Shown here in pieces: positions 7,964-52,144 of a DNA stretch of 64,000 nt. The DNA comes from an uncultured Lachnospiraceae bacterium (GTDB lineage Bacteria > Bacillota > Clostridia > Lachnospirales > Lachnospiraceae), in assembly GCA_946632055.1 (NCBI GenBank), contig CAMPAR010000002.1, positions 10,131 through 74,130 on the forward strand, given 5' to 3'. Numbering within the stretch: the first letter of the stretch is position 1; each line of letters starts with the position of its first letter. The notes below the pieces were generated by a model. It did not search any database. It worked only from the letters and a program-made list of their open reading frames with translations, and was not told the origin of the DNA. A program made the translations under genes and the position numbers.

Positions 7964-8080
7964 TGATCCAAGGGAATCCGTACGCTGGCCCCGCATGCTT
8001 GCATGCAAGGGGACGGGCGGACGTGATTCCCGAACAAACACGAGGATGCAGTCCGGCAGGACGGAATCCGAGTGTTTGTA

Positions 8081-8190
8081 GGATGGCGGGAGTGCGAAGC
8101 ACGGCGCCATCCGTGGATCATCGAAAAGTGGCCGCAAGCTTTGGATGGCGGGAGTGCGAAGCACGGGGCCATCCGTGGATCATCGGAAAG
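8081..8190. repeat. two direct copies (62-bp phase) of a ~47-bp hairpin-forming repeat between the two permease genes
   Basis: GGATGGCGGGAGTGCGAAGCACGGCGCCATCCGTGGATCATCGAAAAG (8081-8127) and near-identical 8143-8190. Each contains the inverted repeat GGATGGCG/CGCCATCC. Confidence 0.8.
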
Positions 8191-16903: not shown

Positions 16904-18703
16904 ATGAAATACTACTGCAACCCCGTCAATGTGAATTACCGTTACCAGTTTATCACGCCGCGCATGCCGGAGGGAAAGCTTGAAATTAACCGCGAGGCGG
17001 CGGATCCTTCGATGATTATGTTCGAAGGCCGCTACTATGTCTTCGCCTCGATGACGCTTGGCGTGTGGGTGTCGGATGACCTCGTGAACTGGGAAAACCA
17101 CCGTCTGCCGGACGAGCTGCCGCTCTATGATTACGCGCCGGACGTGCGTGTGATGAACGGATATGTCTATCTGTGCGCCAGCAAGCGCGGCGGAATCTGC
17201 GACCGTTTCCGCACCAAAGACCCGGTGAACGGGCCTTATGAGAAAATTCCCGGAACCTTTGACTACTGGGACCCGAATCTCTTCATCGATGACGACGGCC
17301 GGGTCTATTTCTACTGGGGCTGCTCGAACGCGACGCCGATCTGGGGCGTGGAGCTCGATCCGGAGACGATGAATCCGAAGGGCGAGCGGGTCGTGCTGAT
17401 CGAAGGACATCCCTTCGAGAACGGCTATGAAAGGGTCGGCGAGGACAACAGCAAGCTTCCGAAGAGCGACGAGGAAGTGGACGCGCTTTTCCAGGGAATG
17501 CTGAAGGCGCGAGGCATGACGGAAGAGATGATTCCGGAAAATCTGCGGGCGTCGGCACGGGGCATGTTCTCCGACATGCCGTTTATCGAAGGCGCCTGGG
17601 TGGACAAGCACTGCGGGAAGTATTATCTGCAGTACGCCTGCCCCGGAACGCAGTACAATACCTACTCGGACGGCGTGTATGTCTCGGACAGCCCGCTCGG
17701 GCCCTACACGCTCGCGGCCAACAATCCCTTCTCCTACAAGCCGGGCGGATTCCTTCCCGGCGCCGGGCACGGCTCGACGATGCAGGACGATCAGGGCAAC
17801 TGGTGGCACATCGCCACAATGCGCATCAGCATGAATCACATGTTTGAGCGCCGCGTCGGACTTTGGCCCGCCGGTTTCGACGGAGACGGCGAGCTCTACT
17901 GCAATCAGCGCTACGGCGACTGGCCGATGAGCGTGAGCGGCCTCCGTCAGGACGCGTTCCGCGATCCGAAGTGGATGCTGCTGTCGTCCGGAAAAGCCGC
18001 CTCAGCGTCTTCCTTCACGGAGGGGCATGAGCCGGAGAAGGCGGCCGAGGAGAATGTACAGACCTGGTGGAGAGCCACGTCCGCGTCGCGTGACGAATGG
18101 CTGATGCTGGATCTTGGAAAAGTGTACGATGTGCATGCGGTGCAGGTGAATTTCGCGGATGACAAGATCGACATTCCGGTGCCGGGCGAGCTTGGAAACG
18201 GCCCGGAGGCGCGTTTTATCGACGGTTCCGAGATGAAGACGCAGTGGAAGCTGGAAGCTTCGGAAGACGGGGAAAACTGGACGCTCGTCTGCGACAAGTC
18301 CGCTGCGGATACCGACCTCTCGCATGACTTCCTGTACGACGAGGACGGATACCGGGCGCGCTACTTCCGCCTCAGCGATATGGCGGTTCCCTACGGGCAG
18401 AATCCCTGTGTTTCGGGACTCCGGGTCTTCGGTCTCGACAACGGGGAAGCGCCGGCCGTTCCGGAATTCTCGGCTGTTCGCACCGGTGATCTCGACATGG
18501 AGGTCACGATCGAGCCGCAGGAAAACACGGTCGGCTGGAATATCCTGTTCGGCAGCTCGGAAGAGAAGCTCTACCACAGCTACATGGTCTTCAAAGCCGG
18601 CACCCAGCACATCGGCGCTCTCGTCAAGGGGCGTGACTATGTGGTGAGAGTGGACGCTTTCAACGAGAGCGGCATCACTGAAGGCGTTGTGAAGAAGCTG
18701 TAA
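16904..18703 (+). CDS. glycoside hydrolase family 43 enzyme with C-terminal F5/8 type C (discoidin) domain
   Basis: N-terminal GH43 propeller strings (NPV..DPSMIMFEGRYYVFAS). C-terminal WWRA..DEWLMLDLG..VHAVQVNF is typical of discoidin/CBM32-like domains. Confidence 0.8.
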   Translation: MKYYCNPVNVNYRYQFITPRMPEGKLEINREAADPSMIMFEGRYYVFASMTLGVWVSDDLVNWENHRLPDELPLYDYAPDVRVMNGYVYLCASKRGGICDRFRTKDPVNGPYEKIPGTFDYWDPNLFIDDDGRVYFYWGCSNATPIWGVELDPETMNPKGERVVLIEGHPFENGYERVGEDNSKLPKSDEEVDALFQGMLKARGMTEEMIPENLRASARGMFSDMPFIEGAWVDKHCGKYYLQYACPGTQYNTYSDGVYVSDSPLGPYTLAANNPFSYKPGGFLPGAGHGSTMQDDQGNWWHIATMRISMNHMFERRVGLWPAGFDGDGELYCNQRYGDWPMSVSGLRQDAFRDPKWMLLSSGKAASASSFTEGHEPEKAAEENVQTWWRATSASRDEWLMLDLGKVYDVHAVQVNFADDKIDIPVPGELGNGPEARFIDGSEMKTQWKLEASEDGENWTLVCDKSAADTDLSHDFLYDEDGYRARYFRLSDMAVPYGQNPCVSGLRVFGLDNGEAPAVPEFSAVRTGDLDMEVTIEPQENTVGWNILFGSSEEKLYHSYMVFKAGTQHIGALVKGRDYVVRVDAFNESGITEGVVKKL

Positions 18704-18752
18704 GGAAGGCGTTGAGCCGGACGGATTTAGCGTTTTCTGCCCGGAAAGTACC

Positions 18753-18847
18753 CCGAGCCGAGGGTAATCAACCTTCCTCATGAGGCGTATACGAAGTCAC
18801 GCCGAAGAGGAAGGTTGATCACGCAGGCGAGTTTTGCAGTAAGAAAC
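18753..18847. repeat. family-B structured repeat, copy 1 (CCGAGCCG head, 13-bp stem, conserved 27-nt loop, one CAGGCGAG tail unit)
   Basis: Head 18753-18760. Stem ATCAACCTTCCTC (18767-18779) pairs with GAGGAAGGTTGAT (18807-18819). Tail ends 5 nt before the stop codon at 18848. Confidence 0.85.
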
Positions 18848-19726
18848 TCACTGGATATCAATAATCACCAGCTCCGGCGGGTTATAGAAGCGGGGCACGA
18901 GGGTCGATTCGCGGGCAAGTCCGCGGCTCACGATCATCGTGACCCCGTTTTCTTTGTATTCTCCGCCGGAATATTTCGGGAAGAGTCCCTGATGCGGCGC
19001 GTAGAGTCCGTTCTTTGTCCAGGGAAGCCGCCACTGCCCGCCGTGCGCGTGTCCGGAGAGCACGAGATCGAAGCGGTGCCGCGTATAAAGCGGGAACAGC
19101 TCCGGACGGTGGGAGAGGAGCAGGCTGAACGCAGAGGGATCGAGCGCTTCTTCGAGGAGGTCAAGCTCCTCCGGCACGCGGCCGCTGTACGAGCTCTGGC
19201 CTCTTCTGAAATGAAAATCCAGCACCTTGTCCGGGTCGTCGACGCCGAAGATCTGAAGCTTTTCGCCGCGGATTTCCAGATTTTCCACGCTTCCCGCGAG
19301 CCTTTTCACGCCGTACTTTTCGAGAAGGGCCATTTTCCGAAGGAAGGCCTCCTCCGACGCCCAGTACTCGTGATTGCCGGTCACATAGAAGCAGGGATAG
19401 CGGTCCGCGATCCCCTTGAGAAGATATTCGGTCTCCGTGTCCTCCCGCTTATCGTCGAAGATATCGCCGGTCAGCACAATGATGTCCGGCTTCTCCCGGT
19501 CAATCGCGGCGATCAGCCTTTCCTGTTCCTTCCCGTAGCCGCAGGAGTGCAGGTCCGATACCTGCGCGATCCGGACCGGGCGCTGCAGCTGATCGCTCTC
19601 TACGGTATAGTGCCGCACGGTCAGTCCCGTGTAAAGCCCCGGGATGAGAAAGAGGAGCAGCACGGCGGCTGCGATGAGAAATCCGATCATTTTTTTCTTA
19701 CCTGTCTGTGTTTTCATATGCTGCAT
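18848..19726 (-). CDS. membrane-anchored metallophosphoesterase (YkuE-like)
   Basis: Motifs VSDLH, GDIFDD, GNHEYW, SGHAHGGQ. N-terminal TM segment. Confidence 0.85.
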   Translation of the reverse strand: MQHMKTQTGKKKMIGFLIAAAVLLLFLIPGLYTGLTVRHYTVESDQLQRPVRIAQVSDLHSCGYGKEQERLIAAIDREKPDIIVLTGDIFDDKREDTETEYLLKGIADRYPCFYVTGNHEYWASEEAFLRKMALLEKYGVKRLAGSVENLEIRGEKLQIFGVDDPDKVLDFHFRRGQSSYSGRVPEELDLLEEALDPSAFSLLLSHRPELFPLYTRHRFDLVLSGHAHGGQWRLPWTKNGLYAPHQGLFPKYSGGEYKENGVTMIVSRGLARESTLVPRFYNPPELVIIDIQ

Positions 19727-19870
19727 TATACCTTTTGATATTCCTTTTGGCAAGGGCGGAAAATCCGCCGGCAGCCCGATTGCCTGCCGGAGAAATATTT
19801 TTTCTGCTGTCACCGAAGAGTCGCTTTCGACTGGTAAAATGACCTCACATTACAGAGGAGGAATGAACTC

Positions 19871-20156
19871 TTGGAAATTCTCAGAATCGAAAACCTGACA
19901 AAGACCTACGGTACCGGCGAGAACCTCGTCCGGGCGCTTGACAACGTGTCCTTCAGCGTGGAGAAGGGCGAATTCATCTCGATCATCAGGCCCTCGGGCT
20001 CCGGAAAGTCGACGCTCCTTCACATCATCGGCGGCGTGGACCGTCCGACCTCCGGAAAAGTGTATATGAACGGGCAGGACGTGTACGCGCAGAATGAGGA
20101 GCTGCTTGCGATCTACCGGGTCACCCGCATCAGCTTCGACGTCAGCTTCGGACACA
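19871..20156 (+). pseudogene. 5' fragment of an ABC transporter ATP-binding gene (MacB/LolD-type), truncated
   Basis: TTG start behind GGAGG. The first ~90 codons match the ABC NBD N-terminus, with an altered Walker A (IIRPSGSGKST where GPSGSGKST is usual). Similarity ends before the Q-loop/signature, at the REP palindrome at 20157. Confidence 0.7.
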
Positions 20157-20207
20157 CCGGGGACAGGTTCCAAATGACGAATTTAGTCATTTGGAACCTG
20201 TCCCCGG
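20157..20207. repeat. family-R REP palindrome (full hairpin copy)
   Basis: CCGGGGACAGGTTCCAAATGAC GAATTT AGTCATTTGGAACCTGTCCCCGG. Same family as the repeats flanking the RAYT gene at 34367-35446. Confidence 0.9.
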
Positions 20208-20291
20208 TGCTTACCGGAATATTCTGCTTGACACCGGGCGGGCCGGCGGTGTATCCTTGCCTAATCAGGGTAAAGAGATCGGAGGAACGCC

Positions 20292-21200
20292 ATGATTTAC
20301 ACCGTCACACTGAACCCGTCACTCGACTATTTTGCGATGACGGAATCCGTATCCGAGGGGAAAACCAACCGTACGCATGACGAATACATCGTACCGGGCG
20401 GGAAAGGTCTGAACGTCTCGATGGTGCTTTCGCGCCTCGGGACAAAAAGCGCGGCGATCGGCTTTACGGCCGGCTTTACCGGCGCGGAGCTTGTGCGCCT
20501 GCTTTCGGAGGAGAAGGTGGACACGGAGATGATCGACGCCGGGGAAGGCTTCACGCGCATCAACGTCAAAATCAACTGCGGGAAAGTGACGGAATTCAAC
20601 GGCGCCGGGATTACGCTTTCGGAAGAGCTCGTCACAACGCTGAAAAAGCGCCTTTCGGCGCTTTCCGGCGAAGATCTTGTGATTCTGTCCGGAAGTATAC
20701 CGAAAGGCGCGAAAAAGGGCCTTTATCATGATCTCATGGCATCCACCGCGGCCCGGGTGATTCTGGACTGCTCCGGAGAGGCCTTAAAGGAAGCCCTGCC
20801 CCTGCATCCCCTCCTCATCAAGCCGAACGATGAGGAAATCGAGGAGCTCGCGGGACACCCCGTCGAAACCGAAGAAGCGCTTCGGGCTGAAATGCTAAAG
20901 TTTCAGGCGCTCGGGGCCGTCAACGTCATGGTCTCCTTAGGCGCACGCGGCGCGGTCCTTCTCACGGAGGGCGGAGACTTCTTCTCCTGTACGCCCCCGG
21001 CCGTCCCGGCCGGACGCCCCTTCAACACCGTCGCCGCCGGAGACTCCATGATCGCGGGCTTCATCCACGCGTATCGGACGACCCCGGATTATGAAAAAGC
21101 CCTCCGCTTCGCCGTCACGGTCGGAACCGCAGCCGCCTATTCGGAGTGGCTTCCCGAAAAATCATTTATCGATAGTCTGTGGAACCAGTTTTCGGAATAA
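20292..21200 (+). CDS. pfkB: 1-phosphofructokinase / PfkB-family sugar kinase
   Basis: 302 aa. MIYTVTLNPSLDY.. and GGKGLNVS are typical of FruK/LacC. C-terminal PfkB motif region TVAAGDSM. Confidence 0.85.
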   Translation: MIYTVTLNPSLDYFAMTESVSEGKTNRTHDEYIVPGGKGLNVSMVLSRLGTKSAAIGFTAGFTGAELVRLLSEEKVDTEMIDAGEGFTRINVKINCGKVTEFNGAGITLSEELVTTLKKRLSALSGEDLVILSGSIPKGAKKGLYHDLMASTAARVILDCSGEALKEALPLHPLLIKPNDEEIEELAGHPVETEEALRAEMLKFQALGAVNVMVSLGARGAVLLTEGGDFFSCTPPAVPAGRPFNTVAAGDSMIAGFIHAYRTTPDYEKALRFAVTVGTAAAYSEWLPEKSFIDSLWNQFSE

Positions 21201-21201
21201 T

Positions 21202-21353
21202 CCGAGCCGAGGGTAATCATACTCCCTCATGAGGCGTATACGGAGTCACGCCGAAGAGGGAGTATGATCTCGCAGGCGAGTTTCGTCATAATCAGGCGAG
21301 TTTCGTCATAATCAGGCGAGTTCTATCAACCCCCAGGCAAGTTCCGCCAATGC
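21202..21353. repeat. family-B structured repeat, copy 2 (head, stem-loop, about four 20-bp tail units)
   Basis: Head 21202-21209. Stem ATCATACTCCCTC (21216-21228) pairs with GAGGGAGTATGAT (21256-21268). Tail CAGGCGAGTTTCGTCATAAT x2 plus two degenerate units to 21353. Fills the whole gap between two stop codons. Confidence 0.85.
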
Positions 21354-21827
21354 TCAGTCGGAGTTCTTCTCCTGATGGTCGATCCACATCCGGAGCATCT
21401 GGACCGCTCCGGAAATATCGTCCAGTTCTTTCTTGATGTCATCAAAATCCGCCTGCTCCTCGCGGTCGATCTTACCGTCGACGGCGATCTCGATCAGGCG
21501 GTCTTTGCGCTTCTCCAGGGAGTTGATCGCGTTCACGGTTTCCAGCGTAATCTGGGAAAGGGACTTCAGCTCCACCTCCGGCACATACACCTGGCCGATC
21601 GGGCACTCGTGCGAGCAGAAGTAATTGCAGAGGCGCGCGTCCCGGTAGCACTCGGACATGGCAAGAACCTCCTCCGGGTGCGGAAGAGAGCGCTGGCCTT
21701 CAATCTTTTCAATCCGGTCATCCGACACAAAACCCATCAGTTCCCCGGCTTTTTCGCGCGTGAGGTCAGCCGCTTCCCGGGAAAGCTGGTACACGGTTTT
21801 GTTCGCTCTTGTAGACTTTCTTCCCAT
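21354..21827 (-). CDS. XRE-family helix-turn-helix protein with Cys-rich segment
   Basis: 157 aa. N-terminal HTH-like region, CNYFCSHECPIG cluster, acidic coiled C-terminus. Confidence 0.7.
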   Translation of the reverse strand: MGRKSTRANKTVYQLSREAADLTREKAGELMGFVSDDRIEKIEGQRSLPHPEEVLAMSECYRDARLCNYFCSHECPIGQVYVPEVELKSLSQITLETVNAINSLEKRKDRLIEIAVDGKIDREEQADFDDIKKELDDISGAVQMLRMWIDHQEKNSD

Positions 21828-22155
21828 AACAATCTTCCTTTCGACAAGATCAGTCAGGTGCGCGCGAAAGACGGGCTGTGAGAAAAGCGCCGGTCTCCCC
21901 GCGGATCAGTTCATTTGGATGATATTGTCATTATATCATATATTATCAAAAAGAGAAGATGGTATTTTCCGGAACTTTCGAAGGAAGCGAAGCGCCCCGT
22001 ATAACAGCCCGTGATCCCGGGGCTTTCGGCGGATTAGGCCGTGGTAATCCGCATGTGCAGCCTCTTTACGATTCCGCAGAATTCTGCTATGATATCCGAC
22101 AAGGACAGCATAAAGAAAGAGCTGGTCCATCACCATGAAGAAAGGGGCAGAGAAC

Positions 22156-23661
22156 ATGGAAAAAATACTGATTCCACTGATTGTCGTCGGAGTGATCCTA
22201 CTCATCATCATTATCGTCACCGGGTATGTGAAGGCCCCGCCGGACAGAGCTTATATCATTTCCGGACTCCGCAGAGAGCCTCGGATTCTGATCGGACGCG
22301 CGGGCATCAAGCTCCCGTTCCTGGAAAGGAAGGATACGCTCGTCCTGAAGCAGGTGAGCATCGATATCAAGACCAACGGCTATGTGCCGACGCTCGACTT
22401 CATCGGCGTGGATATTGACGCGGTCGCGAAGGTCCGGGTGAAGACCGATCCCGAGGGCATCAAGATCGCGATGAAAAACTTCCTGAATATGGATGACAAG
22501 ACGATCATCGCGGCGCTGACGGACTCCCTGCAGGGTAATATGCGTGAGATCATCGGCACGGTCCGCCTGAAGGAGCTCAACACCGACCGGAAGAAATTCG
22601 GTGATGAGGTGCAGGAAAAGGCGCAGAAGGACATGAATGCGCTCGGCATCGAGATCATCTCCTGCAACATTCAGAAGATTGAAGACGAAAAGGGACTGAT
22701 CGTCGCCCTCGGTCAGGACAATATGTCCCAGATCCAGAAGGACGCGTCGATCGCGAAGGCCCAGGCCGATAAGGACGTGGCCATCGCGGAAGCGGAAGCG
22801 AAGCGCATGGCGAACGAGGCGCAGGTCGCGGCGGAAACCGAGATCGCGGCGAGAAAGAATGAACTCCGGATCCGCCAGGCGGAGCTGAAGCGTGAGTCCG
22901 ACGTGAAGCAGGCGGAGGCGGATGCGGCCTACGAAATCCAGCAGCAGGAACAGCGTAAGACCATCGAGGTCGCGACGGCGAACGCGAACATTGCCCGTCA
23001 GGAGCGCGAGATCGAGCTGAAGAAGAAGGACGTCGAAGTCACCGAGCAGACGCTGGACGCGCAGATCAAGAAGAAGGCGGAGGCCGAAAAGTACGCCCGC
23101 CAGCAGCAGGCGGAGGCCGAGCTCTTCGAGCGGCAGCGGAAGGCGGAAGCGGAGCGCTTCGAGCGCGAGAAGGAAGCGGAAGCCCGCAAGGTTCAGGCGG
23201 AAGCCGAGCTGTACGCTAAGACCCAGCAGGCGGAAGGTATCCGCGCCGTCGGCGAAGCGGAGGCGAAGGCCATTGAAGCGAAGGGCCTCGCGGAAGCGGA
23301 AGCGCTGGAAAAGAAGGCGGAAGCCATGAAGAAGTACGGCCAGGCGGCCATGATGGAAATGATCGTGAAGGCGCTTCCTGAAATGGCGGCGGCGATCGCG
23401 AAACCGCTCGAATCCATCGACAAGGTGACGATCATCGACGGCGGCGGCCAGGGCGGAACCGGCGTGGAGCAGATGGGCTCCTATGTGCCGAACGTCCTCG
23501 CGAAGACGATCGAGTCCGTGAAGGAAATTACGGGGCTCGACCTCGTCGAAGTCATGAAGGCCGAAACCTATGACGCGAAGGTCAATAAGAACGTCCATGT
23601 GACGGGACTTTCCGGGGAAGCGGCGGAAACCGTGAAGGAAGTCCTGAACACGGAAGAATAA
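22156..23661 (+). CDS. flotillin-like SPFH/band-7 protein (FloT/YuaG-like)
   Basis: N-terminal TM, SPFH domain, long A/E/K-rich coiled-coil (flotillin repeats). Start chosen at MEKILIPL, which has an SD. Confidence 0.9.
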   Translation: MEKILIPLIVVGVILLIIIIVTGYVKAPPDRAYIISGLRREPRILIGRAGIKLPFLERKDTLVLKQVSIDIKTNGYVPTLDFIGVDIDAVAKVRVKTDPEGIKIAMKNFLNMDDKTIIAALTDSLQGNMREIIGTVRLKELNTDRKKFGDEVQEKAQKDMNALGIEIISCNIQKIEDEKGLIVALGQDNMSQIQKDASIAKAQADKDVAIAEAEAKRMANEAQVAAETEIAARKNELRIRQAELKRESDVKQAEADAAYEIQQQEQRKTIEVATANANIARQEREIELKKKDVEVTEQTLDAQIKKKAEAEKYARQQQAEAELFERQRKAEAERFEREKEAEARKVQAEAELYAKTQQAEGIRAVGEAEAKAIEAKGLAEAEALEKKAEAMKKYGQAAMMEMIVKALPEMAAAIAKPLESIDKVTIIDGGGQGGTGVEQMGSYVPNVLAKTIESVKEITGLDLVEVMKAETYDAKVNKNVHVTGLSGEAAETVKEVLNTEE

Positions 23662-23674
23662 ACTTTAGAAGCCA

Positions 23675-23709
23675 AAAAAGTCTGTGAAATCCGCTTTCAC
23701 AGACTTTTT
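23675..23709. terminator. bidirectional rho-independent terminator
   Basis: AAAAAGTCTGTGAAA / TTTCACAGACTTTTT perfect stem flanked by A- and T-runs. Confidence 0.75.
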
Positions 23710-23729
23710 TGTTGGACATCTGTTGGACA
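23704..23729 (+). promoter_or_regulatory. 26-nt conserved element with TTGGACA-N4-TTGGACA direct repeat (copy 1)
   Basis: CTTTTTTGTTGGACATCTGTTGGACA is identical to 30270-30295. A TTATTC -10-like hexamer follows 7 nt downstream. Lies about 100 nt upstream of the phosphatase ATG. Confidence 0.5.
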
Positions 23730-23827
23730 GGGAGTGTTATTCTGCTGCTGTAAGATCAGGAAAAGTGCGTATTTTCGGTCAGAAGAATACGCTTGTATGT
23801 TTTTTACAGCTACAGAGGAGGCAGGTC

Positions 23828-25189
23828 ATGAAAACGCTCCCGAAAACCCTCATCGCGATCGTCATCAGTCTGGCAGCAGCATTTCTTCTGCTGTCCTGTC
23901 TTGACGCGTTCTATGAGAGTGAGTCGGGTACGATTGAGGAAATCCTGACCGGTGAGGAACAGCCGGACGAGAAGGGCCTGCTGCACCCGGGCTACACGCT
24001 GCAGCAGACGGTCATCTTAAGCCGCCACAATATCCGTTCGCCCCTGAGCGGAAAAGGCTCGGTGCTGGATTCGATTACGCCTTACGAGTGGTTCCAGTGG
24101 ACCTCGGAACCCGGCGAGCTTTCGGTGCGCGGAGGCGTTCTCGAGACCGAGATGGGCCAGTATTTCCGCAAGTGGTTTGAGAGAGAAGGGCTGTTCCCGG
24201 AGGACTGCCAGCCGGAGGACGGCGAAGTGCGGATCTATGCGAACGCCAAGCAGCGCACCATCGCGACCGCGCGCTTCTTTGCCGCGGGGCTTCTGCCGAA
24301 TGCGAATGCGGAAGTGGAGTATCACGGGGAATTCAATTCGATGGACCCGGTGTTTAATCCGCAGCTTCATTTCATGACGGACGAATACCGGCAGGACGCG
24401 GACAATGAAATCCATGCGCTCTTCGATAAAAAAATCGCCGGACTGTCGGACAACTTCGAATTCCTTCAGGAGCTGATCAATATGAAGCAGTCCGAGGGGT
24501 ATCTGGACGGAAGCATCACGGATTTTTCCACGGAGGACACCTCGCTCATTCTGGAGGAGGACGCGGAGCCCGGAATGGCCGGTTCCCTCAAAACCGCCTG
24601 CTCCGTGAGCGATGCGCTCGTGCTGCAGTACTATGAAGCAAAAGAGCCCGAGGCCTCTTTCGGCCGGACGCTGACGACGGAACAGTGGGAGCAGATCGCG
24701 GAGATCAAGGACGTGTACGAGGATGTGCTGTTTACGGCGCCGCTGGTCGCATCGAACGCGGCGAACCCGCTTCTTCGGGAAATCGAAGCCGAGCTGAACG
24801 AAGAAGGGCGGAAGGTAAGCTTCCTCTGCGGGCATGACTCGAACCTTGCGAGCGTCCTTGCGGCGCTGGAGGCGGAGGACTACAGACTGCCCCACGCAAT
24901 AGAGAAAAAGACGCCGATCGGCTGCAAGCTCGTCATCGGCAGATGGAAGAGTTCGGACGGGAAGAACTATGTCTCCCTGGATCTTGTGTACCAGACCGCG
25001 GAGCAGTTAAGAGGCGTGACGCTTCTTGACGATGAGAATCCTCCGGCGGCGGTGCCGGTTTACCTGAAGGGCCTGAAAACGAACCGGGACGGCCTGTATG
25101 AAGAGGAAGCCTTCGAAAAGCGCCTGAAGGAAGCCATCGACCGCTATCAGGAGCTTCAGGAAAGCTACGCGGTCCCGGACGCGGCTTAA
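23828..25189 (+). CDS. secreted histidine acid phosphatase (branch 2; AppA/Agp/phytase-like) lipoprotein
   Basis: Lipobox LLLSC. Catalytic RHNIRSP (RHGxRxP) and downstream HD motif (CGHDSN). Confidence 0.8.
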   Translation: MKTLPKTLIAIVISLAAAFLLLSCLDAFYESESGTIEEILTGEEQPDEKGLLHPGYTLQQTVILSRHNIRSPLSGKGSVLDSITPYEWFQWTSEPGELSVRGGVLETEMGQYFRKWFEREGLFPEDCQPEDGEVRIYANAKQRTIATARFFAAGLLPNANAEVEYHGEFNSMDPVFNPQLHFMTDEYRQDADNEIHALFDKKIAGLSDNFEFLQELINMKQSEGYLDGSITDFSTEDTSLILEEDAEPGMAGSLKTACSVSDALVLQYYEAKEPEASFGRTLTTEQWEQIAEIKDVYEDVLFTAPLVASNAANPLLREIEAELNEEGRKVSFLCGHDSNLASVLAALEAEDYRLPHAIEKKTPIGCKLVIGRWKSSDGKNYVSLDLVYQTAEQLRGVTLLDDENPPAAVPVYLKGLKTNRDGLYEEEAFEKRLKEAIDRYQELQESYAVPDAA

Positions 25190-25530
25190 TCGGCCTCGAT
25201 TTCTTTAATAATGCACTCGTTTCCCTTCAGGAGCCAGGTTTCCCCGGAGCCGCAGTGCGGACAGGTACGGCCGTATTTCACGGTTTCGTAAGTGCTTTTG
25301 CAGCTGTCGCACCAGGTGACGGCCGGGATGGTCTCCATGCGGAGCTCCGCCTCAGCAAGGACCGGGTGCCTTTTTCTGAAATAATTCCAGCAGTCTTCAA
25401 AATAGTCGGTGACAATCCCGCTGACTTCCCCGATTTCCAGTGTGACGGAGGAGATCCTTTTCAGGTTCTCCTCCGTCGCTGTCTGTTCGAGCGTCTTCGC
25501 GAGGTGTATAATAATCCCCATTTCGTGCAT
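25186..25530 (-). CDS. hypA: hydrogenase/urease-type nickel insertion protein HypA
   Basis: 114 aa. N-terminal MHEMG (MHE nickel site) and zinc ribbon CDSC..CPHCG. Confidence 0.85.
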   Translation of the reverse strand: MHEMGIIIHLAKTLEQTATEENLKRISSVTLEIGEVSGIVTDYFEDCWNYFRKRHPVLAEAELRMETIPAVTWCDSCKSTYETVKYGRTCPHCGSGETWLLKGNECIIKEIEAD

Positions 25531-25548
25531 AACACTGCTCCATAAACC

Positions 25549-25677
25549 CCGAGCCGTACGGGTTGAATTGTATTTTCATGCAGAGCTCACTCCGAGCCGT
25601 CCGGGCTGATTTGTCTTTCCATGCAAAGTTCACCTCGAGCCGCCCGGGTTGATTTGTATTTCCATGCAGATCTCACC
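25549..25677. repeat. three tandem 43-bp repeats, each starting with the CCGAGCCG head
   Basis: Units start at 25549, 25592 and 25635 (CCGAGCCGTACGGGTTGAATTGTATTTTCATGCAGAGCTCACT and variants). Immediately followed by family-B copy 3. Confidence 0.85.
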
Positions 25678-25748
25678 CCGAGCCGAGGGTAATCATACTT
25701 CCTCATGAGGCGTATACGGAGTCACGCCGAAGAGGAAGTATGATCACG
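25678..25748. repeat. family-B structured repeat, copy 3 (head and stem-loop)
   Basis: Head 25678-25685. Stem ATCATACTTCCTC (25692-25704) pairs with GAGGAAGTATGAT (25732-25744). The 27-nt loop is identical to copy 2. Confidence 0.85.
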
Positions 25749-25840
25749 CAGGCGAGTTTTGCCATTACAGGCGAGTTTTGCCATTACAGGCGAGTTTTGC
25801 TATTACAGGCGAGTTTTGCCATTACAGGCGAGTTCAGCAA
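25749..25840. repeat. tandem 19-bp tail array of family-B copy 3 (4 full units plus 1 partial)
   Basis: CAGGCGAGTTTTGCCATTA units at 25749, 25768, 25787 and 25806, with a partial unit at 25825. Ends exactly at the stop codon (25841) of the 977-aa gene. Confidence 0.85.
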
Positions 25841-28774
25841 TCACACGCGGCTGTCGTCGCCGTCCATGAGGTCGGCGAGGTCCACGGCGTTGCCGGTGTG
25901 CGGATGCGTCTTGTGGAAGTCCTTCGTCGCCTCATTGTAGGCTTTGCGCTTCCTCTTCATCTCCTTCGCTTCCTCGGAACCGCTGTTCTTAATGATCTTA
26001 ATGCCGCGCTTCACGGCGTAGGAGAGGAGTCCGCCGACCTTGTCTTCCGCGCGCCGCATGTCGGAATTATCCGGATGGTCGCGGAGAAGGTGGATTGCGT
26101 CGAATTCGCAGCGGGTCGTGCAGAGACCGCAGCCGATGCACTTGTTGGCGTCGACAATCGTAGCGCCGCAGGAAAGGCAGCGGGAAGTTTCGATCTTCAC
26201 CTGCTCTTCGGTAAGGGTCAGCCTCGGATCGCGGAAGCCGTGCTTCGGATCGATCGAAGGATCGACGGCCGGCACCTGGCGTCCGGCGGAGTCGTAGGAA
26301 TCGATGGCGATATTAGTCTTATCGAGTTCCTTGAAGTAGCGGCGGTCGCGGCCGAGCTTCTGAGGAACGCTGTTCTTTGACACAAAGCGCGCGAGGGATT
26401 CCGCCGCTTCGTGGCCCTGTCCGATCGCGTCGATCACGAATTTCGGACCGGTAAAGACGTCGCCGCCGACGAAGATTGCCGGATCATCCGTCTGGTAGGT
26501 GAAGGGATCGGCAATCGGGTAAGCGCCGCGGAACCTGACGTCGGTGCCCTTTAAGAGATCTCCCCACTGAATGGCCTGTCCGATCGCAAATACAATGTGG
26601 TCGGCCTGAACCGTCATCGTATCGTTTTCATCATAGGCGGGAGAGAATTTTCCGGTCGCAGGGTCGATCGTTCTGAGACAGCGCTTCAGCACGAGGCCTG
26701 TAACCGTGCCGTCTTCTCCGACGAGCACTTCCTTCGGGCCCCAGCCCGGGTTCATCCGGACGTTTTCTTCCTCAGCTTCCTGGATTTCCTCCGGGGAGGC
26801 GGGCATCGTGTCACGGGATTCGAGACAGAACATGGAAACCTTCGAGGAACCGAGCCTTCCGGCGGTTCTCGCGCAGTCGATCGCGACGTTTCCGCCGCCG
26901 ATGACGACGGTTTCACCGGGAAGCTCCGTGATCGAGCCGCCGAGCGCGTTTTCAAGGAAATGCACGGCGATGTCGGTGCCTTTCGCGGTTTCATTCGGGA
27001 TGCCGGGGAGACGGCCGCCCTGACAGCCGATCGCGACATAGAAGGCCTGATAGCCCTGCTTCTTCAGTTCGTCAATCGTGATATCCTTTCCGACCTCCAC
27101 GCCGCAGCGGATTTCGGCGCCGAGCGCGCGGATCACGTCGATTTCCGCGGCGATGACGTCCTTCTCCAGCTTGTACGCCGGAATACCGTACTGCATCATG
27201 CCGCCCGGTTTCTCGTGCTTTTCAAAGACCGTCGGCTTGTAGCCGCGGGACGCAAGATAGTAGGCGCAGGAAAGGCCTGCGGGGCCGGCGCCGATGATCG
27301 CGATCTTCTGATTCCAGGAGCCGCTTAAGTTGTTCACAACCTTCTTCGGAATATAGCGGGTTTCGGCCTTCAGGTCCCGCTCTGCCAGGAATTTCTTCAC
27401 GTCGTCAATCGCGACCGGCTTGTCGATTGTGCCTCTCGTGCAGGCGTCTTCACAGCGCTTGTTGCAGACGCGTCCGCAGATCGCCGGGAAGGGGTTCTCG
27501 CGCTTGATGAGCGCGAGCGCCTCGTCGTAGCGGCCTTCTCTGGCCATCCGAAGGTAGCCCTGAATCGGCACGTGAGCGGGGCAGGCGGCCTTGCAGGGCG
27601 CGGTGCCGGTCTTGTGCGTGTTGACGCGGGCGGTGTCGCGGTAGTTTTCGTCCCAGGCGTATTTGCCCCAGCGAAGCGCGTCCGGGATCGGGGACTTCGG
27701 ATACCGGACTTCCGTCCCGTCCTTTTGGCAGAGCTTTTGGCCAAGCTTTAAAGCGCCGGCGGGGCAGACTTCCACGCAGCGGCCGCAGGCGACGCAGTTT
27801 TCCTTCGTAACCTGAGCCGTATAGGCGCTCTTCGACATATTCGGCGTGTTGAAGAGAAGCGAGGTCCGAAGCGCGTTGCAGATCTGGACATTGCAGTTGC
27901 AGATATCGAAGATGTGGTCCTCGCCGTCGATATTCGTGATCTGGTGCACATAGCCGTTTTCTTCGGCCTTCTGAAGGATATCGAGCGCTTCTTCCTTCGT
28001 GATATAGTGCGCCCGGCCGGTTTCGACGGTGTAATCCGCCATGTCGCCCAGCTGGATGCACCAGTCGTTTTCATCGTCCGTGCAGCCCTCGCCGAGCTTC
28101 GCGCGCGAGTAGCGGCAGGAGCAGATGCCGGCGGCGATATGGCCGTCGTACTTCTGCAGCCAGTAGGAGATCTTCTCGATCGAGGCGGCTTCCCGGGTCA
28201 TCTGCACTTCCTTTTCGACCGGGATGACATGCATGCCGATGCCGTTTCCGCCGGGGCGCACCATCGGCGTGATGTGCTCGAGGGGCAGGAAGGTCATGCG
28301 CTCAAACATTCTCGCGACCGCCGGATTCTTATCGACGCGGTCCTGAGAGGAGTTGAAAAGCTCGGCGGAGCCGGGCACAAAGTAGCTCGTGCGGAAGCGC
28401 TTTTCCTTCGGAGCGCCCGGAATCGGGCCGTTGTCGTCATAGTGATCGCCGTAATCGTACTCGACGAAGCCGTGGGTGCAGAGCAGTTCGAGCGCCTTGT
28501 CGAAGCGCTCATTTCCGAGCGCGGCGTTCATTTTCCGAAGCTCTTCCTCGGTGTACCATTTGCGCTGCTTCATCGAAAGCGCGATGTCCACCTCGTCCTC
28601 CGTCAGGATTTCCCGGAGGCCCCAGTACTCCTCGTCGGTCGTTTTCAGCCCGAAGAGCTTGTGCGGCACATTGTCCGTGATTTTCGCGCCGAGCTTCGCG
28701 TATTTCTTCTGAAGCACGGCTTCCCCGTCATACTTTGACTTGGTTTCCGGATTCTGATCATATATTTCCGGCAT
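25841..28774 (-). CDS. 977-aa multi-cluster Fe-S flavoprotein (GltD-like NAD(P)H/FAD oxidoreductase core fused to ferredoxin-like and Cys-rich N-terminal domains)
   Basis: GltD-type strings CKAACPAHVPIQGY..ICGRVCNKRCEDAC, dinucleotide fold IAIIGAGPAGLSCAYYL and a second GGGNVAIDCA. CxxCxxCxxxCP motifs: CVACGRCVEVCP and C-terminal CLSCG..CIGCGLCTTRC. The N-terminal ~330 aa is Cys-rich and of unknown function. Confidence 0.8.
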   Translation of the reverse strand: MPEIYDQNPETKSKYDGEAVLQKKYAKLGAKITDNVPHKLFGLKTTDEEYWGLREILTEDEVDIALSMKQRKWYTEEELRKMNAALGNERFDKALELLCTHGFVEYDYGDHYDDNGPIPGAPKEKRFRTSYFVPGSAELFNSSQDRVDKNPAVARMFERMTFLPLEHITPMVRPGGNGIGMHVIPVEKEVQMTREAASIEKISYWLQKYDGHIAAGICSCRYSRAKLGEGCTDDENDWCIQLGDMADYTVETGRAHYITKEEALDILQKAEENGYVHQITNIDGEDHIFDICNCNVQICNALRTSLLFNTPNMSKSAYTAQVTKENCVACGRCVEVCPAGALKLGQKLCQKDGTEVRYPKSPIPDALRWGKYAWDENYRDTARVNTHKTGTAPCKAACPAHVPIQGYLRMAREGRYDEALALIKRENPFPAICGRVCNKRCEDACTRGTIDKPVAIDDVKKFLAERDLKAETRYIPKKVVNNLSGSWNQKIAIIGAGPAGLSCAYYLASRGYKPTVFEKHEKPGGMMQYGIPAYKLEKDVIAAEIDVIRALGAEIRCGVEVGKDITIDELKKQGYQAFYVAIGCQGGRLPGIPNETAKGTDIAVHFLENALGGSITELPGETVVIGGGNVAIDCARTAGRLGSSKVSMFCLESRDTMPASPEEIQEAEEENVRMNPGWGPKEVLVGEDGTVTGLVLKRCLRTIDPATGKFSPAYDENDTMTVQADHIVFAIGQAIQWGDLLKGTDVRFRGAYPIADPFTYQTDDPAIFVGGDVFTGPKFVIDAIGQGHEAAESLARFVSKNSVPQKLGRDRRYFKELDKTNIAIDSYDSAGRQVPAVDPSIDPKHGFRDPRLTLTEEQVKIETSRCLSCGATIVDANKCIGCGLCTTRCEFDAIHLLRDHPDNSDMRRAEDKVGGLLSYAVKRGIKIIKNSGSEEAKEMKRKRKAYNEATKDFHKTHPHTGNAVDLADLMDGDDSRV

Positions 28775-28810: not shown

Positions 28811-29485
28811 TTATACAGTGCCCTGCGGGCCCGTTTTCCATTCGTTCATGCGTTCAAGAAGCCAGTCCGTGAGCGCCTTCATCCCTTCCCCGGTTTTGGC
28901 CGAAACCGGGAAGACAGAAAGCCCGGGATTCAGCTTTTTCGCGCGCTCTTTGCACTTTTCGAGATCAAAATCGAACCAGGGCAGCGCGTCCAGCTTTGTC
29001 ACGACCAGCGCGTCGGATTTCTGAAACATCAGCGGATATTTCAGGGGCTTGTCGTCGCCCTCCGGAACGCTGAGAATCATCATGCTGAGTCCGGCGCCGG
29101 TGTCGTATTCGGCGGGACAGATCAGGTTTCCGACATTTTCAAGAAAGGCGAGATCGTACGCGCCGGATTCCAGTGCTTTTACGGATTCCCAGGTCATCCC
29201 GGCGTCCATATGGCACATGCCGTCCGTATGAACCTGGACGGCTTCGGCGCCGAGCGCTTCAATCCTTTCCGCGTCGACGGTGGATTCGATATCGGCTTCG
29301 AGAACGGCAATCCGCGTGTCCGGAAGCTCCCGGATGATCCGCGAAAGAAGCGTCGTCTTTCCGGCCCCGGGGCTGGACATCAGGTTGACAAGAAGCGTGC
29401 CCTGACGGCGCATTTCGGCGCGCAGCGCGTCGGCCTCCCGGTCATTTTCTGCCGTGACGGAAGCGTGGAGTTCAATGACCTTCAT
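28811..29485 (-). CDS. hypB: nickel-dependent GTPase HypB (paralog 1)
   Basis: P-loop SSPGAGKTT, metal-site CHMD, ENVGNLICPA, TKLD. No His-rich or CxxCGC N-terminus. Confidence 0.9.
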   Translation of the reverse strand: MKVIELHASVTAENDREADALRAEMRRQGTLLVNLMSSPGAGKTTLLSRIIRELPDTRIAVLEADIESTVDAERIEALGAEAVQVHTDGMCHMDAGMTWESVKALESGAYDLAFLENVGNLICPAEYDTGAGLSMMILSVPEGDDKPLKYPLMFQKSDALVVTKLDALPWFDFDLEKCKERAKKLNPGLSVFPVSAKTGEGMKALTDWLLERMNEWKTGPQGTV

Positions 29486-30168
29486 GTGGCGGAGCCTCCT
29501 TTCCTTGCGGCCTGCAGCCTCTCGTCCAGGAAGCGGCAGAACGCCTCATAGCCTTCGCCGGTTCTTGCGGATACCGGGAAAACGGAAAGACCGGGATTCA
29601 GTTTCAGGGCCCGCGCCGAAGCCGACGCCTCGTCAAAATCGAAGACCGCCTTCGTGTCGGTCTTGCTGATGAGAAGACAGTCGCTGATCTGAAACATCAG
29701 CGGGTACTTTAAGGGCTTGTCGTCGCCCTCCGGGACTGACAGGATCATCACGCGTAGATCCGCGCCGACCTCAAACTCCGCCGGACACACCAGGTTTCCG
29801 ACGTTTTCGAGAATGACGAGGTCAAGATCCCGGATCCCGAGCGCCTGAAGCCCGCGTCGCGTCATATCCGCGTCCATGTGGCAGAGCCCGCCGGTGTGAA
29901 TCTGGATGACCTTCGTGCCGGTCTCCGCGACGGTTTTTGCGTCCGTATCGCCGTCCGCATCGGCCTCCATGACGCCGATCCGGTATTTCCTTCCGAGCCT
30001 TTTCACGATCTCCAGCACCGTACTCGTTTTTCCGGCCCCGGGGCTTCCCATGAGGTTCAGGAGAACGGTTCCGTTTTCCGAAAGCATGCGCCGGTTTTCC
30101 TCGGCGGCTTTATCATTGTCCGCCAGGACCTGTTCCTTGATTTCAACGATTTCGAAATGATTTTCCAT
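29482..30168 (-). CDS. hypB: nickel-dependent GTPase HypB (paralog 2)
   Basis: GSPGAGKTS, CHMD, ENVGNLVCPA, SKTD. Its stop overlaps the paralog-1 start (ATGA). Start chosen at MENHFEIV. Confidence 0.9.
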   Translation of the reverse strand: MENHFEIVEIKEQVLADNDKAAEENRRMLSENGTVLLNLMGSPGAGKTSTVLEIVKRLGRKYRIGVMEADADGDTDAKTVAETGTKVIQIHTGGLCHMDADMTRRGLQALGIRDLDLVILENVGNLVCPAEFEVGADLRVMILSVPEGDDKPLKYPLMFQISDCLLISKTDTKAVFDFDEASASARALKLNPGLSVFPVSARTGEGYEAFCRFLDERLQAARKGGSAT

Positions 30169-33438: not shown

Positions 33439-34365
33439 ATGAATAAACCGGATGAGATCCAGCTGAGACTTTTAAGAGAAGTCGCCGACCTTCACGATAT
33501 TCCGGAAGGCGCCTACAACATCCGCGCGAACGGCGAATCCGCTGGCAGACGCTCGACGGAGAACATCGAGATTATCAGCAAGACCGACGTCAGCGGCCTT
33601 GAGATTCATATCAAACCGGGCACGAAGAAGGAAAGCGTGCACATACCGGTCGTCATGACCCAGACCGGCCTCAAGGAAGTGGTCTACAATGATTTCTTCA
33701 TCGGCGAGGATGCGGAGGTCGTGATCGTTGCGGGCTGCGGCATTGATAACTGCGGGCCGAAGGACTCCGAGCACGACGGCATCCACCGCTTCTATGTCGG
33801 GAAAAACGCGAAGGTGCGCTATGTCGAGAAGCATTACGGCTCCGGCGACGGGACCGGGAAGAGAATCCTGAACCCCGGCACGGAGGTCTACCAGGAGGAA
33901 GGCTCCTCGGTCGAGATGGAAATGGTGCAGATCAAGGGCGTGGACGACACGATCCGTACGACGACCGCCGAGCTCGCGGCCGGCGCGAAGCTGGTCGTGA
34001 GGGAGCGCCTGATGACGCACGGCGAGCAGAACGCCGTCTCGACCTATGTCATCAACTTAAACGGGGAAGGCTCCTCTGCGGATGTCGTGTCCCGCTCGGT
34101 TGCGCGCGACAGCTCCTTCCAGAAATTCGACGCGAAGATCGTCGGCTCCGCCGCCTGCTCCGGGCATACCGAATGCGACTCTATCATCATGGACAACGGC
34201 CGCATCCTGGCGGTTCCCGGCCTTGAAGCAAACAGCGTCGACGCCGCGCTCGTGCATGAAGCCGCGATCGGCAAGATCGCCGGCGACCAGATCATCAAGC
34301 TCATGACGCTCGGCCTCACCGAAGCCGAAGCCGAAGAGCAGATCATCAACGGATTCCTGCGGTAA
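33439..34365 (+). CDS. SufB/SufD family Fe-S assembly scaffold protein
   Basis: About 308 aa. Beta-helix-like repeats and a C-terminal region typical of short clostridial SufBD proteins. Gene context with sufC. Confidence 0.7.
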   Translation: MNKPDEIQLRLLREVADLHDIPEGAYNIRANGESAGRRSTENIEIISKTDVSGLEIHIKPGTKKESVHIPVVMTQTGLKEVVYNDFFIGEDAEVVIVAGCGIDNCGPKDSEHDGIHRFYVGKNAKVRYVEKHYGSGDGTGKRILNPGTEVYQEEGSSVEMEMVQIKGVDDTIRTTTAELAAGAKLVVRERLMTHGEQNAVSTYVINLNGEGSSADVVSRSVARDSSFQKFDAKIVGSAACSGHTECDSIIMDNGRILAVPGLEANSVDAALVHEAAIGKIAGDQIIKLMTLGLTEAEAEEQIINGFLR

Positions 34366-34507
34366 CGGGGACAGGTTCCAAATGACTAATTTAGTCATCC
34401 GGGGACAGGTTCCAAATGCTCAATTTAGTCATCCGGGGACAGACCTCCGGAATATCGGCCGGAAGAAATAAAAAAATTTTTCATTTGGATTTATCATAAA
34501 CAACAGT

Positions 34508-34559: not shown

Positions 34560-34664
34560 GAAATCAGATCAAAAACTATGACAAAATAATACACAAAAAG
34601 ATGGATTTACAAAAAGCATAGATTCTGCTATAATCTTCGAATCAGTATTTGAGAGGTGAAGACC

Positions 34665-35417
34665 ATGGCAAGAACAGCAAGGAGAAAAAGCAGCAGCGGA
34701 TATTATCATATCATGATCCGAGGGGTGAACAAGCAGGTTATTTTCAATGATGATCAGGATCGGCGGCACTTTGTCCGGGTGATGAGGACGATGCTGGAGA
34801 GGGACAGCGCGGAGCTTGCCGCATATTGCCTGATGAATAATCATGTGCATTTTCTGCTTCGCGCCGATGATCCGGGTGCATTCCTCAAAAGAATTGCTTC
34901 GTCGTATGTATATTACTATAACAGGAAGTATGACCGCGTGGGGCACCTGTTTCAGGACCGCTTCAAGAGTGAGCCGGTCGACGACGAAAGCTATTTCCTC
35001 ACGGTGTTCAGATATATTTTAAGAAATCCGGAAGCGGCGGGGATCTGCAAAACCGAAGAATATCCGTGGAGCAGTTATCGGGAAATGTCAGGGCAGCAGG
35101 ACATTTGCACATGCTCCCTGGCGGCGAGGCTGGCGGGCGGTCTTGAAGCGCTGGAGGCGTTTGTGAGCTGCGACAATGAGGATGAGTGTATGGATCTGGA
35201 TAAAAAGAAAGACATGGATGAGCAGGAAATTCGAATGCTTGTGAAAGAGCTTGCCCGTGTTGAAGAGCCTGAATATATCAGGGGACTTCCCAAAGACAGG
35301 CGGGATCAGATGATCCGCGGACTGCTGCTGGCGGGCCTGACGCCGCGCCAGCTTTCTGCAGTGACGCATATTTCAAGAGATACGATAAGGAAAGTTCAGG
35401 GGTCTGTCCCTTCGTGA
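34665..35417 (+). CDS. REP-associated tyrosine transposase (IS200/IS605-like Y1 HUH transposase, RAYT type)
   Basis: 250 aa. YHIMIRG, HUH motif HVHFLL, GHLFQDRFKS, catalytic-Tyr region FRYILRNP. Single gene, no tnpB. Flanked by REPs. Confidence 0.85.
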   Translation: MARTARRKSSSGYYHIMIRGVNKQVIFNDDQDRRHFVRVMRTMLERDSAELAAYCLMNNHVHFLLRADDPGAFLKRIASSYVYYYNRKYDRVGHLFQDRFKSEPVDDESYFLTVFRYILRNPEAAGICKTEEYPWSSYREMSGQQDICTCSLAARLAGGLEALEAFVSCDNEDECMDLDKKKDMDEQEIRMLVKELARVEEPEYIRGLPKDRRDQMIRGLLLAGLTPRQLSAVTHISRDTIRKVQGSVPS

Positions 35418-35449
35418 CTAAATTAGTCATCCGGAACCTGTCCCCGAAA

Positions 35450-51930: not shown

Positions 51931-51981
51931 CCGGGGACAGGTTCCGATTGACTAAATTAGTCAATCGGAACCTGTCCCCGG
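51931..51981. repeat. family-R REP palindrome (full hairpin copy)
   Basis: CCGGGGACAGGTTCCGATTGAC TAAATT AGTCAATCGGAACCTGTCCCCGG. Differs from the 20157 copy by compensated stem changes. Confidence 0.9.
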
Positions 51982-52144
51982 TGCTGCGAAGAGGCTCATA
52001 TTAGGATGACAGCGGCGGGAACTGCTCCCGTTGCCGTGTTCCAATTATCCTTACAGGAATACCACGATACTTATATTGCGGGATCCGAGACCGTATTTTA
52101 TAATTGTATTATCAAAACCAGTTGGATTGAAGGAGGAAAAAGCA

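Follow-up and report, generated by a model that had tools for sequence, protein, structure and literature searches.

Enterobacterial REP/BIME repeats stabilise the mRNA upstream of them. In Streptococcus pneumoniae, BOX elements follow a modular plan, boxA-boxB(n)-boxC, and reports of them are confined to the S. pneumoniae/mitis/suis group (Croucher et al. 2011, PMC3049150). BOX, RUP, and SPRITE repeats are enriched downstream of genes; BOX elements are co-transcribed with their neighbouring genes and are seen as parasites whose effects on mRNA are incidental (PMC3049150). The locus that we describe here belongs to the uncultured rumen and gut Clostridia, a host group with hardly any interspersed repeats or non-coding elements on record.

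We analysed a 64-kb stretch of DNA (hereafter the window, meaning the whole stretch) in which a first-pass annotation had placed three copies of a structured repeat, at 18753-18847, 21202-21353, and 25678-25840, all in the same orientation. Number, positions, and orientation proved exact. An ungapped repeat search returned an 88-nt core three times in one orientation (18750-18837, 21199-21286, and 25675-25762), with 86-94% identity. The 18-nt head, CCGAGCCGAGGGTAATCA, has three exact occurrences in 64 kb against 0.05 expected, and the 27-nt loop occurs three times in the window with 0 mismatches to an R-degenerate pattern, against 0 expected. The stems are as the annotation had quoted them: core columns 22, 23, and 26 of the 5' arm vary in step with the 3'-arm columns to which they pair (66, 65, and 62), and all three changes are Watson-Crick compensated. 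A rough null for three matched compensations is ~5e-6, or ~2e-4 if the adjacent pair is counted as one event. Within the 88-nt core, substitutions fall at 3 of 13 positions in each arm, 2 of 17 in the head, 3 of 18 in the tail, and 1 of 27 in the loop, which is the single substitution claimed for it. Folded as RNA and compared with shuffled sequences, the hairpin of the window copies gives z = -4.5 to -6.4 on either strand; with DNA parameters it reaches -21 to -26 kcal/mol, with z down to -7.

A second metagenome assembly of this strain, made independently (L059, 99.97% identity across 13.2 kb), contains the three elements base for base. The elements and their repeat numbers are therefore not assembly artefacts. 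The flanks of the three copies have nothing in common beyond the element, so the copies are not a segmental duplication, and the objection that they might have been duplicated together with their surroundings fails. The copies are clustered within 6.9 kb of the ~74 kb searched (P ~0.025 under a uniform model), a pattern compatible with local hopping; a covariance-model search of the 10 kb past the window's 3' end in the same genome found no further copy.

Each composite, i.e., the core with its side modules, occupies its entire intergenic space. The parts are listed below by window position, with P2 and P3 for the outer and inner helix and L and R for head-side and tail-side units.

18704..18847 (+): copy 1 composite, from the stop of a GH43 gene (18701-18703) to the stop of a minus-strand metallophosphoesterase gene (18848-18850); the two genes are convergent
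18712..18752 (+): copy 1 L unit, single and degenerate, TTGAGCCGGACGG...GTACC
18750..18766 (+): copy 1 head, ACCCCGAGCCGAGGGTA, conserved in the family, with a possible mini-hairpin CCCCG-AGC-CGAGGG
18767..18779 (+): copy 1 P2, 5' arm, ATCAACCTTCCTC
18780-18783 and 18804-18806 (+): copy 1 internal-loop purines, 5' AUGA and 3' GAA
18784..18803 (+): copy 1 P3, GGCGT/ACGCC, with a 10-nt apical loop
18807..18819 (+): copy 1 P2, 3' arm, GAGGAAGGTTGAT
18820..18847 (+): copy 1 tail, CACGCAGGCGAGTT plus one R unit, ending at the TGA of the minus-strand gene
21201..21353 (+): copy 2 composite, from 1 nt after the stop of a PfkB gene (21198-21200) to the stop of a convergent minus-strand HTH gene (21354-21356)
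21216..21268 (+): copy 2 bipartite hairpin, P2 arms 21216-21228 and 21256-21268, loop with P3 21229-21255
21269..21353 (+): copy 2 tail and R array, units starting at 21273, 21293, 21313, and 21334 with a period of 20-21 nt; the last (21334) is degenerate, CAGGCAAGTT
25531..25840 (+): copy 3 composite, 310 nt, from the start of hypA (minus strand, 25530) to the stop of an oxidoreductase gene (minus strand, 25841-25843)
25546..25677 (+): copy 3 L array, a 43-nt unit repeated 3.3 times in tandem (25546-25685 if the stretch shared with the head is counted), each repeat beginning with the head's CCGAGCCG
25692..25744 (+): copy 3 bipartite hairpin, P2 arms 25692-25704 and 25732-25744, loop with P3 25705-25731
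25745..25840 (+): copy 3 tail and R array; the 19-nt unit, CAGGCGAGTTTTGCCATTA, is present 4.5 times, with starts at 25749, 25768, 25787, 25806, and 25825

What had been described as a CAGGCGAG tail is thus the first unit of a tandem array, with one unit in copy 1, about four in copy 2, and 4.5 in copy 3. Across the family, the side modules are (i) 43-44-nt units starting CGAGCC on the head side, and (ii) 18-23-nt units starting CGCAGGCGAGTT on the tail side. Tandem head-side modules recur in another species, where locus L030 (bin.58, see below) carries two 44-nt L units. The outermost units are the most degenerate, and hence we consider that the modules likely arose by slippage or unequal exchange.

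We compared the element with known RNA families. An Rfam 15 scan of the window at gathering thresholds gave nothing at the element, a permissive scan of 18600-25950 (E<=10) gave only sub-threshold miRNA-type hairpin noise there, and the copies from relatives described below had no Rfam match; the first-pass statement that the repeat could not be matched to a known class therefore stands. The only Rfam matches above gathering in the window are a T-box leader (146-411) and a Clostridiales-1 RNA (7964-8120). The 3' 48 nt of the latter (8081-8128) are directly repeated at 8143-8190, 62 nt downstream, with 96% identity. Other direct repeats, 70-78% identical and spaced by 668-671 nt, lie at 28871-29155 and 29539-29823 (also 29353-29401 and 30024-30072) and look like two tandem paralogous genes. 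About 2-3 kb past the window's 3' end in the same genome (L075 7383-8354), ~970 nt without a called gene are flanked by a thymidine kinase gene and a 472-aa ORF. Among the relatives' loci, L030 2425-2511 (+), ~2.3 kb from an element copy, falls just short of a match to group II intron D1-D4 (31.8 bits; gathering threshold 32).

The window also contains an IS200-like Y1_Tnp (RAYT-type) ORF at 34656-35417 (+), flanked on both sides by 50-55-nt perfect palindromes, CCGGGGACAGGTTCC...GGAACCTGTCCCCGG. This palindrome family, D1, flanks the ORF at 34365-34453 and 35397-35451 and has solo copies at 20157-20211 and 51931-51985. One solo palindrome is inside or behind a truncated ABC-ATPase ORF (19871-20380), between element copies 1 and 2. 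As the first-pass annotation had stated, the RAYT-associated repeats are distinct from the element and form a separate palindrome family.

We searched genome contigs for two R units in tandem, and this pattern returned 51 loci. True members were found in L015, L020, L030, L041, and L042 only; the other loci are unrelated tandem arrays or acidic coding repeats that contain the 10-mer by chance. The MAG SRR8387716_bin.58 has at least three copies (L015, L030, and L042) and a broken contig end (L041), and the MAG RGIG7066 has two head-to-head copies, both in L020. In total we collected eight copies from three genomes, and copy number per genome may be small. All of them share the head-hairpin-tail-array plan and lie beside unrelated housekeeping genes. 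The first-pass annotation had proposed scanning further sequence with a covariance model of the three window copies; a model built from all eight scores those copies at 77-102 bits, and with five copies in two other species the covariation was upheld. No credible match to the model was found in ~630 kb of other fetched sequence, which includes the 10 kb past the window; a weak match at L030 7564-7626 is inside a coding region and was discarded as a false positive.

The exact loop, GGCGTATACGNAGTCACGCC, had 0 matches in 185,579 species-representative genomes, and in the metagenome collection it was found at the same locus only, apart from two chance matches inside genes. It is therefore not a family-wide signature. 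Head-to-tail and R-unit pattern searches of viral contigs returned nothing relevant (L058 is a coding repeat), and neither did blastn of the 310-nt composite against plasmids and phages. In our best reading the family is lineage-restricted, in rumen Clostridia and Lachnospiraceae.

Several further observations came from the same searches. At L020 4375-4703, between proC and a thioesterase gene, the two head-to-head copies are 70 nt apart and form a ~330-nt REPIN-like inverted doublet. Two bin.58 contigs stop within identical arrays of tail units (L030 1-32 and L041 3597-3629), where the repeat probably broke the short-read assembly. Arrays of (N)GCGAGTT in 10-22-nt units occur in many phyla (among them Actinomycetota, Bacteroidota, Planctomycetota, Cyanobacteria, and Bacillota), at loci within L007-L057 that include L037 2400-2720, L024 5080-5230, L023, L044, L045, and L019/L036. 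One Bacillota MAG has more than 15 units containing this motif in tandem, and in Ferruginibacter the motif forms AACTCGCC-N3-GGCGAGTT palindromes. We take the wide phyletic spread of these arrays as ascertainment, because the search pattern selects tandem repeats.

We aligned the eight copies, three from the window and five from the two rumen Lachnospiraceae MAGs. Across this alignment the 27-nt loop of the first-pass annotation splits into an internal loop, an inner helix, and an apical loop. The internal loop is purine-rich, with (N)RA on the 5' side and GA(N) on the 3' side; its size is 2x2 in L020a and L042 (AA/GA or GA/GA) and 4x3 in the window copies. A kink-turn was considered for it and rejected, as the loop is 2x2 or 4x3 with no 3-nt one-sided bulge. 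The inner helix has 5-6 bp and covaries (GGCGT/ACGCC, GGCGAC/GTCGCC, GGTGAC/GTCACC, and AGTGTA/TACACT), with a degenerate version in L015, and the apical loop has 7-10 nt and differs between copies in both sequence and length. The outer helix has 13-15 bp in the family. Hence the GGCGT/ACGCC inner hairpin that the annotation had reported is present in the window but is not invariant, since relatives replace it compensatorily. The related proposal, that the 27-nt loop is the conserved and recognised part, did not hold: the loop is constant in this genome only. What is conserved in sequence is the head, CGAGCCGAGGGTWAT, together with the purines of the internal loop and the tail, ATCNCGCAGGCGAGTT.

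In the eight-copy, model-fitted alignment, which itself leans towards structure, 98.2% of cells form standard pairs and 14 of the 21 modelled pairs show double-sided changes. With partners slid out of register, pairing fell to 33-62%, and none of 500 shuffles reached any observed measure. A plain MAFFT alignment analysed with RNAalifold, which is independent of the model-fitted one, gave 11 compensated pairs in the outer helix. The first-pass suggestion of a selected RNA or ssDNA structure thus gains weight: comparative sequence evidence supports the hairpin as a selected single-strand structure. In bin.58, both helices are strongly divergent within one genome and all copies remain paired. Divergent but paired copies would also fit selection at each locus, i.e., a host function.

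The head can be folded into its own mini-hairpin. We considered an additional pairing between head and tail (P1, GCC/GGC) and set it aside; its positions are invariant and hence uninformative, and it competes with the head mini-hairpin. One aberrant copy, L042 179-273 (-), has its conserved head swapped for CCTGCGAGAT, the exact complement of tail ATCTCGCAGG, and its hairpin is 10 bp longer. This single case suggests head-tail pairing or a template-switch event.

Two loci could be compared with empty orthologous sites. In the window, copy 3 separates hypA from the gene for a 977-aa FAD/Fe-S oxidoreductase; the two genes are encoded on the minus strand. Of the relatives that could be retrieved, the two closest (L005 and L006, with oxidoreductases 92% and 82% identical) have the stop and the ATG of this junction 2 nt apart or overlapping, where the window has the 310-nt element. 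A single insertion separates a formerly translationally coupled pair. In L015, a Lachnospiraceae MAG locus, the element follows the stop of a 588-aa gene and precedes the intrinsic terminator that belongs to this gene. The same site is empty in L062-L072, where ten contigs come from a relative at 93% identity and one from a relative at 85%: the terminator is kept, the spacer is 79-99 nt, and the element is absent. At the level of sequence, these comparisons show that copies have been gained by insertion into intergenic DNA directly behind stop codons. For copies 1 and 2, synteny is not retained in the nearest relatives.

No terminal inverted repeats are visible at the two filled/empty comparisons. 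Neither pair has a direct repeat, although the spacers have diverged and duplications of 2-3 bp could be hidden. The outer array ends are also the least conserved part of the element. Given these observations, classical cut-and-paste MITE mechanics are unsupported. Multiple dispersed copies and two empty orthologous sites identify an interspersed repeat, and the insertions together with the tandem side modules move our reading from a riboswitch-like RNA to a structured interspersed repeat.

Every copy lies 3' of at least one gene. In five cases (window copies 1-3, L015, and L020b) a gene on the opposite strand has its stop codon (TGA or TAA) 0-1 nt from the R side; in L030/L041 the tail-side array and the stop codon are separated by a host terminator. 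The neighbouring genes are functionally unrelated (GH43, PfkB, hypA, proC, a response regulator, and a permease-like protein). Copy 3 and L015 lie inside transcription units, at an operon junction and in a stop-to-terminator stretch, respectively. Where single copies are between co-directional genes (window copy 3, L015, and L030), the head-to-tail strand is antisense, and transcripts of those genes would contain its reverse complement; for L020a and L042 the orientation is sense.

We next consider which strand folds. The raw count on the head-to-tail strand is 7 G-U pairs against 3 non-pairs. Two G-U pairs and one mismatch in L020a are artefacts of the gapless covariance-model alignment, and the corrected G-U count favours the head-to-tail strand by ~4-5 to 1. 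Its folding energy is 6-9 kcal/mol better in 3 of 8 copies and ~1 kcal/mol worse in the other 5. The G-U pairs and predicted energies together lean towards the head-to-tail strand as the folded one. All three window copies are on the G-rich strand, but the copies in relatives are mixed relative to GC skew, and a replication-strand bias was rejected. After the main hairpin there is no U tract on either strand, where the sequence reads CACGCAGG on (+) and TACCCTCGG on (-), and the main hairpin received no terminator call. Because it lacks a U tract, and because L015 retains a separate host terminator downstream, the element is not a canonical terminator. No promoter or terminator consensus was found at the element.

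We favour, with modest confidence, the reading that the element is an undescribed, lineage-restricted, non-autonomous structured interspersed repeat family, similar to BOX, REP, and MITE repeats, that spread by a mechanism recognising single strands and came to rest in 3' UTRs and operon junctions. The element is probably mobile. Its core plan is ~90 nt long, running from head CGAGCCGAGGGTWAT through a two-helix hairpin to tail ATCNCGCAGGCGAGTT, with helices that are free in sequence and kept paired; head and tail have each spawned tandem modules outwards. A trans-acting enzyme or binding protein would recognise the hairpin and the conserved flanks on a single strand (ssDNA or RNA). If this recognition took place during copying, only foldable copies would propagate. 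After insertion, an element would be co-transcribed into 3' UTRs or intercistronic RNA, where the stable hairpin (predicted at about -26 to -35 kcal/mol) would be expected to act as an exonuclease barrier rather than a terminator. Any such RNA-level effect would likely be a side effect.

A first alternative, which we regard as unlikely, is that the element is a cis-acting RNA that benefits its host: a protein bound to the hairpin and the repeated CGCAGGCGAGUU motifs (or their complements) would lead to stabilisation, insulation, or processing of the neighbouring mRNA, or the element would be an independent small RNA, and the family would then spread as useful rather than selfish. Two helices that covary, together with conservation of the flanks and of unpaired purines (a tandem G-A/A-A internal loop), are what usually marks a functional RNA. 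The divergent copies of one genome all retain pairing, and copy 3 and L015 are certainly within transcription units. However, the element is associated with no gene function, and close relatives thrive with the corresponding sites empty. Its orientation to the mRNA is also inconstant, as the sense copies L020a and L042 stand against the antisense window copy 3, L015, and L030, and neither a terminator or promoter consensus nor an Rfam match speaks for such a role.

Iterons beside a hairpin are the layout of the double-strand origins of rolling-circle replication and of other HUH substrates. An alternative modelled on rolling-circle origins, HUH-enzyme substrates, and recombinase arm sites would accordingly treat the element as a protein-binding array at the DNA level, in which 12-nt CGCAGGCGAGTT iterons recur about every two helical turns and the hairpin is extruded or nicked, as the cis site of an unknown HUH, recombinase, or partition-type protein. 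We think this quite unlikely. It would account for a conserved 12-mer spaced at 18-23 bp beside a hairpin whose sequence is free and whose pairing is kept. The hairpin is also stable under DNA parameters, the folded strand leans one way regardless of the direction of transcription, and the same genome carries a Y1 (HUH) transposase gene. Against it, no cognate gene adjoins any copy, orientation is inconsistent with respect to GC skew or replication strand, the window RAYT has its own, different repeats, and the plasmid, phage, and viral collections gave no matches.

That the element belongs to a known class, namely attC, a RAYT REP/REPIN, a family of intrinsic terminators, or part of a group II intron, appears very improbable. 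Its position right behind stop codons is attC-like, the head-to-head doublet in L020 recalls REPIN, and its GAGCCG(T)A strings are reminiscent of group II intron domain V. However, head and tail are not complementary R''/R' boxes, and neither an integrase nor a cassette array is present; different repeats flank the RAYT; the hairpin lacks a U tract; and the intron and other models of Rfam are silent at the element even at E<=10. Candidate readings as terminator, promoter, attC, or group II domain V were each rejected, as their defining features are absent. Finally, recent local duplication or chance similarity without a selected structure can practically be dismissed: the three window copies are within 7 kb and 86-94% identical, but their flanks are unrelated, the same architecture recurs in other species, the compensation statistics are strong, and the motifs are far above chance.

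A further reading, which we regard as doubtful, is that the element is the cis site of an unrecognised single-strand-specific system of rumen Clostridia, in which a dedicated protein (a candidate would be an HUH-type nuclease, a recombinase, or an RNA-binding protein) reads the head, the purine loop, and the iterated CGCAGGCGAGTT on a folded strand and inserts or copies the element exactly behind stop codons. If true, this would be a new chromosomal hairpin-plus-iteron module, mobile or regulatory, beyond another MITE. On present evidence the element opens no long-standing question and shows no new principle. It does add a well-supported structured repeat family, with two covarying helices and clear empty sites, and it is a useful case for following the spread of small repeats and the changes that they bring to 3' UTRs and operon junctions, with modules growing outwards on both sides of a hairpin core and tight placement behind stop codons. 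The breaks at the L030/L041 contig ends mean that the family also bears on MAG quality, as it breaks short-read assemblies.

Like the MITEs RUP and Correia/NEMIS, it is shorter than 350 bp, non-coding, dispersed in several copies, present or absent among relatives, and able to form a hairpin when transcribed. A MITE requires terminal inverted repeats, whereas here the sole inverted repeat is the internal hairpin and the outer ends are non-complementary; the termini of the element are its least conserved part, no TSD was seen at the two empty-site comparisons, and no parent IS is known. No cognate or mobilising gene was found beside any copy, and the sole Y1 transposase of the window is flanked by different repeats. 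PATEs of the IS200/IS605 type have subterminal hairpins at both ends, insert 3' of a fixed tetra- or pentanucleotide, and are biased to the lagging-strand template; the present element has one hairpin, its R side does follow TRA (stop) in five copies, and its orientation relative to GC skew is mixed across loci. Integron attC sites share a position directly 3' of ORFs, conserved ends, a variable compensated central stem, and function as a folded single strand. They differ in their complementary RYYYAAC/GTTRRRY boxes, their integrase, and their one-gene cassette arrays, none of which is seen here, and attC sites have no counterpart of the flanking tandem repeats. Apart from the aberrant L042 copy, head CGAGCCGAGGGTWAT and tail ATCNCGCAGGCGAGTT are not complementary, and the neighbours are housekeeping genes in mixed orientation.

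REP/BIME and REPIN repeats come nearer. They are intergenic imperfect palindromes, often behind stop codons and in mosaics with other short motifs, whose hairpin is kept while its sequence drifts, and the L020 head-to-head doublet resembles a REPIN. However, the hairpin described here is far longer and bipartite and has no GTAG-type 5' tetranucleotide, and no RAYT adjoins any copy, the one in the window being flanked by the other palindrome family. The element and BOX are both small modular intergenic repeats with a ~45-nt tandem module in variable number and an extensive compensated stem-loop, without a link to gene function, over-represented downstream of genes, and confined to a narrow lineage. 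In BOX the variable module is inside, between the pairing modules, whereas the tandem modules of the present element are outside the hairpin core, on both sides; TIRs and TSDs are reported for BOX and none were seen here, and the two are compared by architecture, a relationship in sequence not being expected. In behaviour, the closest counterparts of the element are the pneumococcal BOX repeats and the enterobacterial REP/BIME mosaics.
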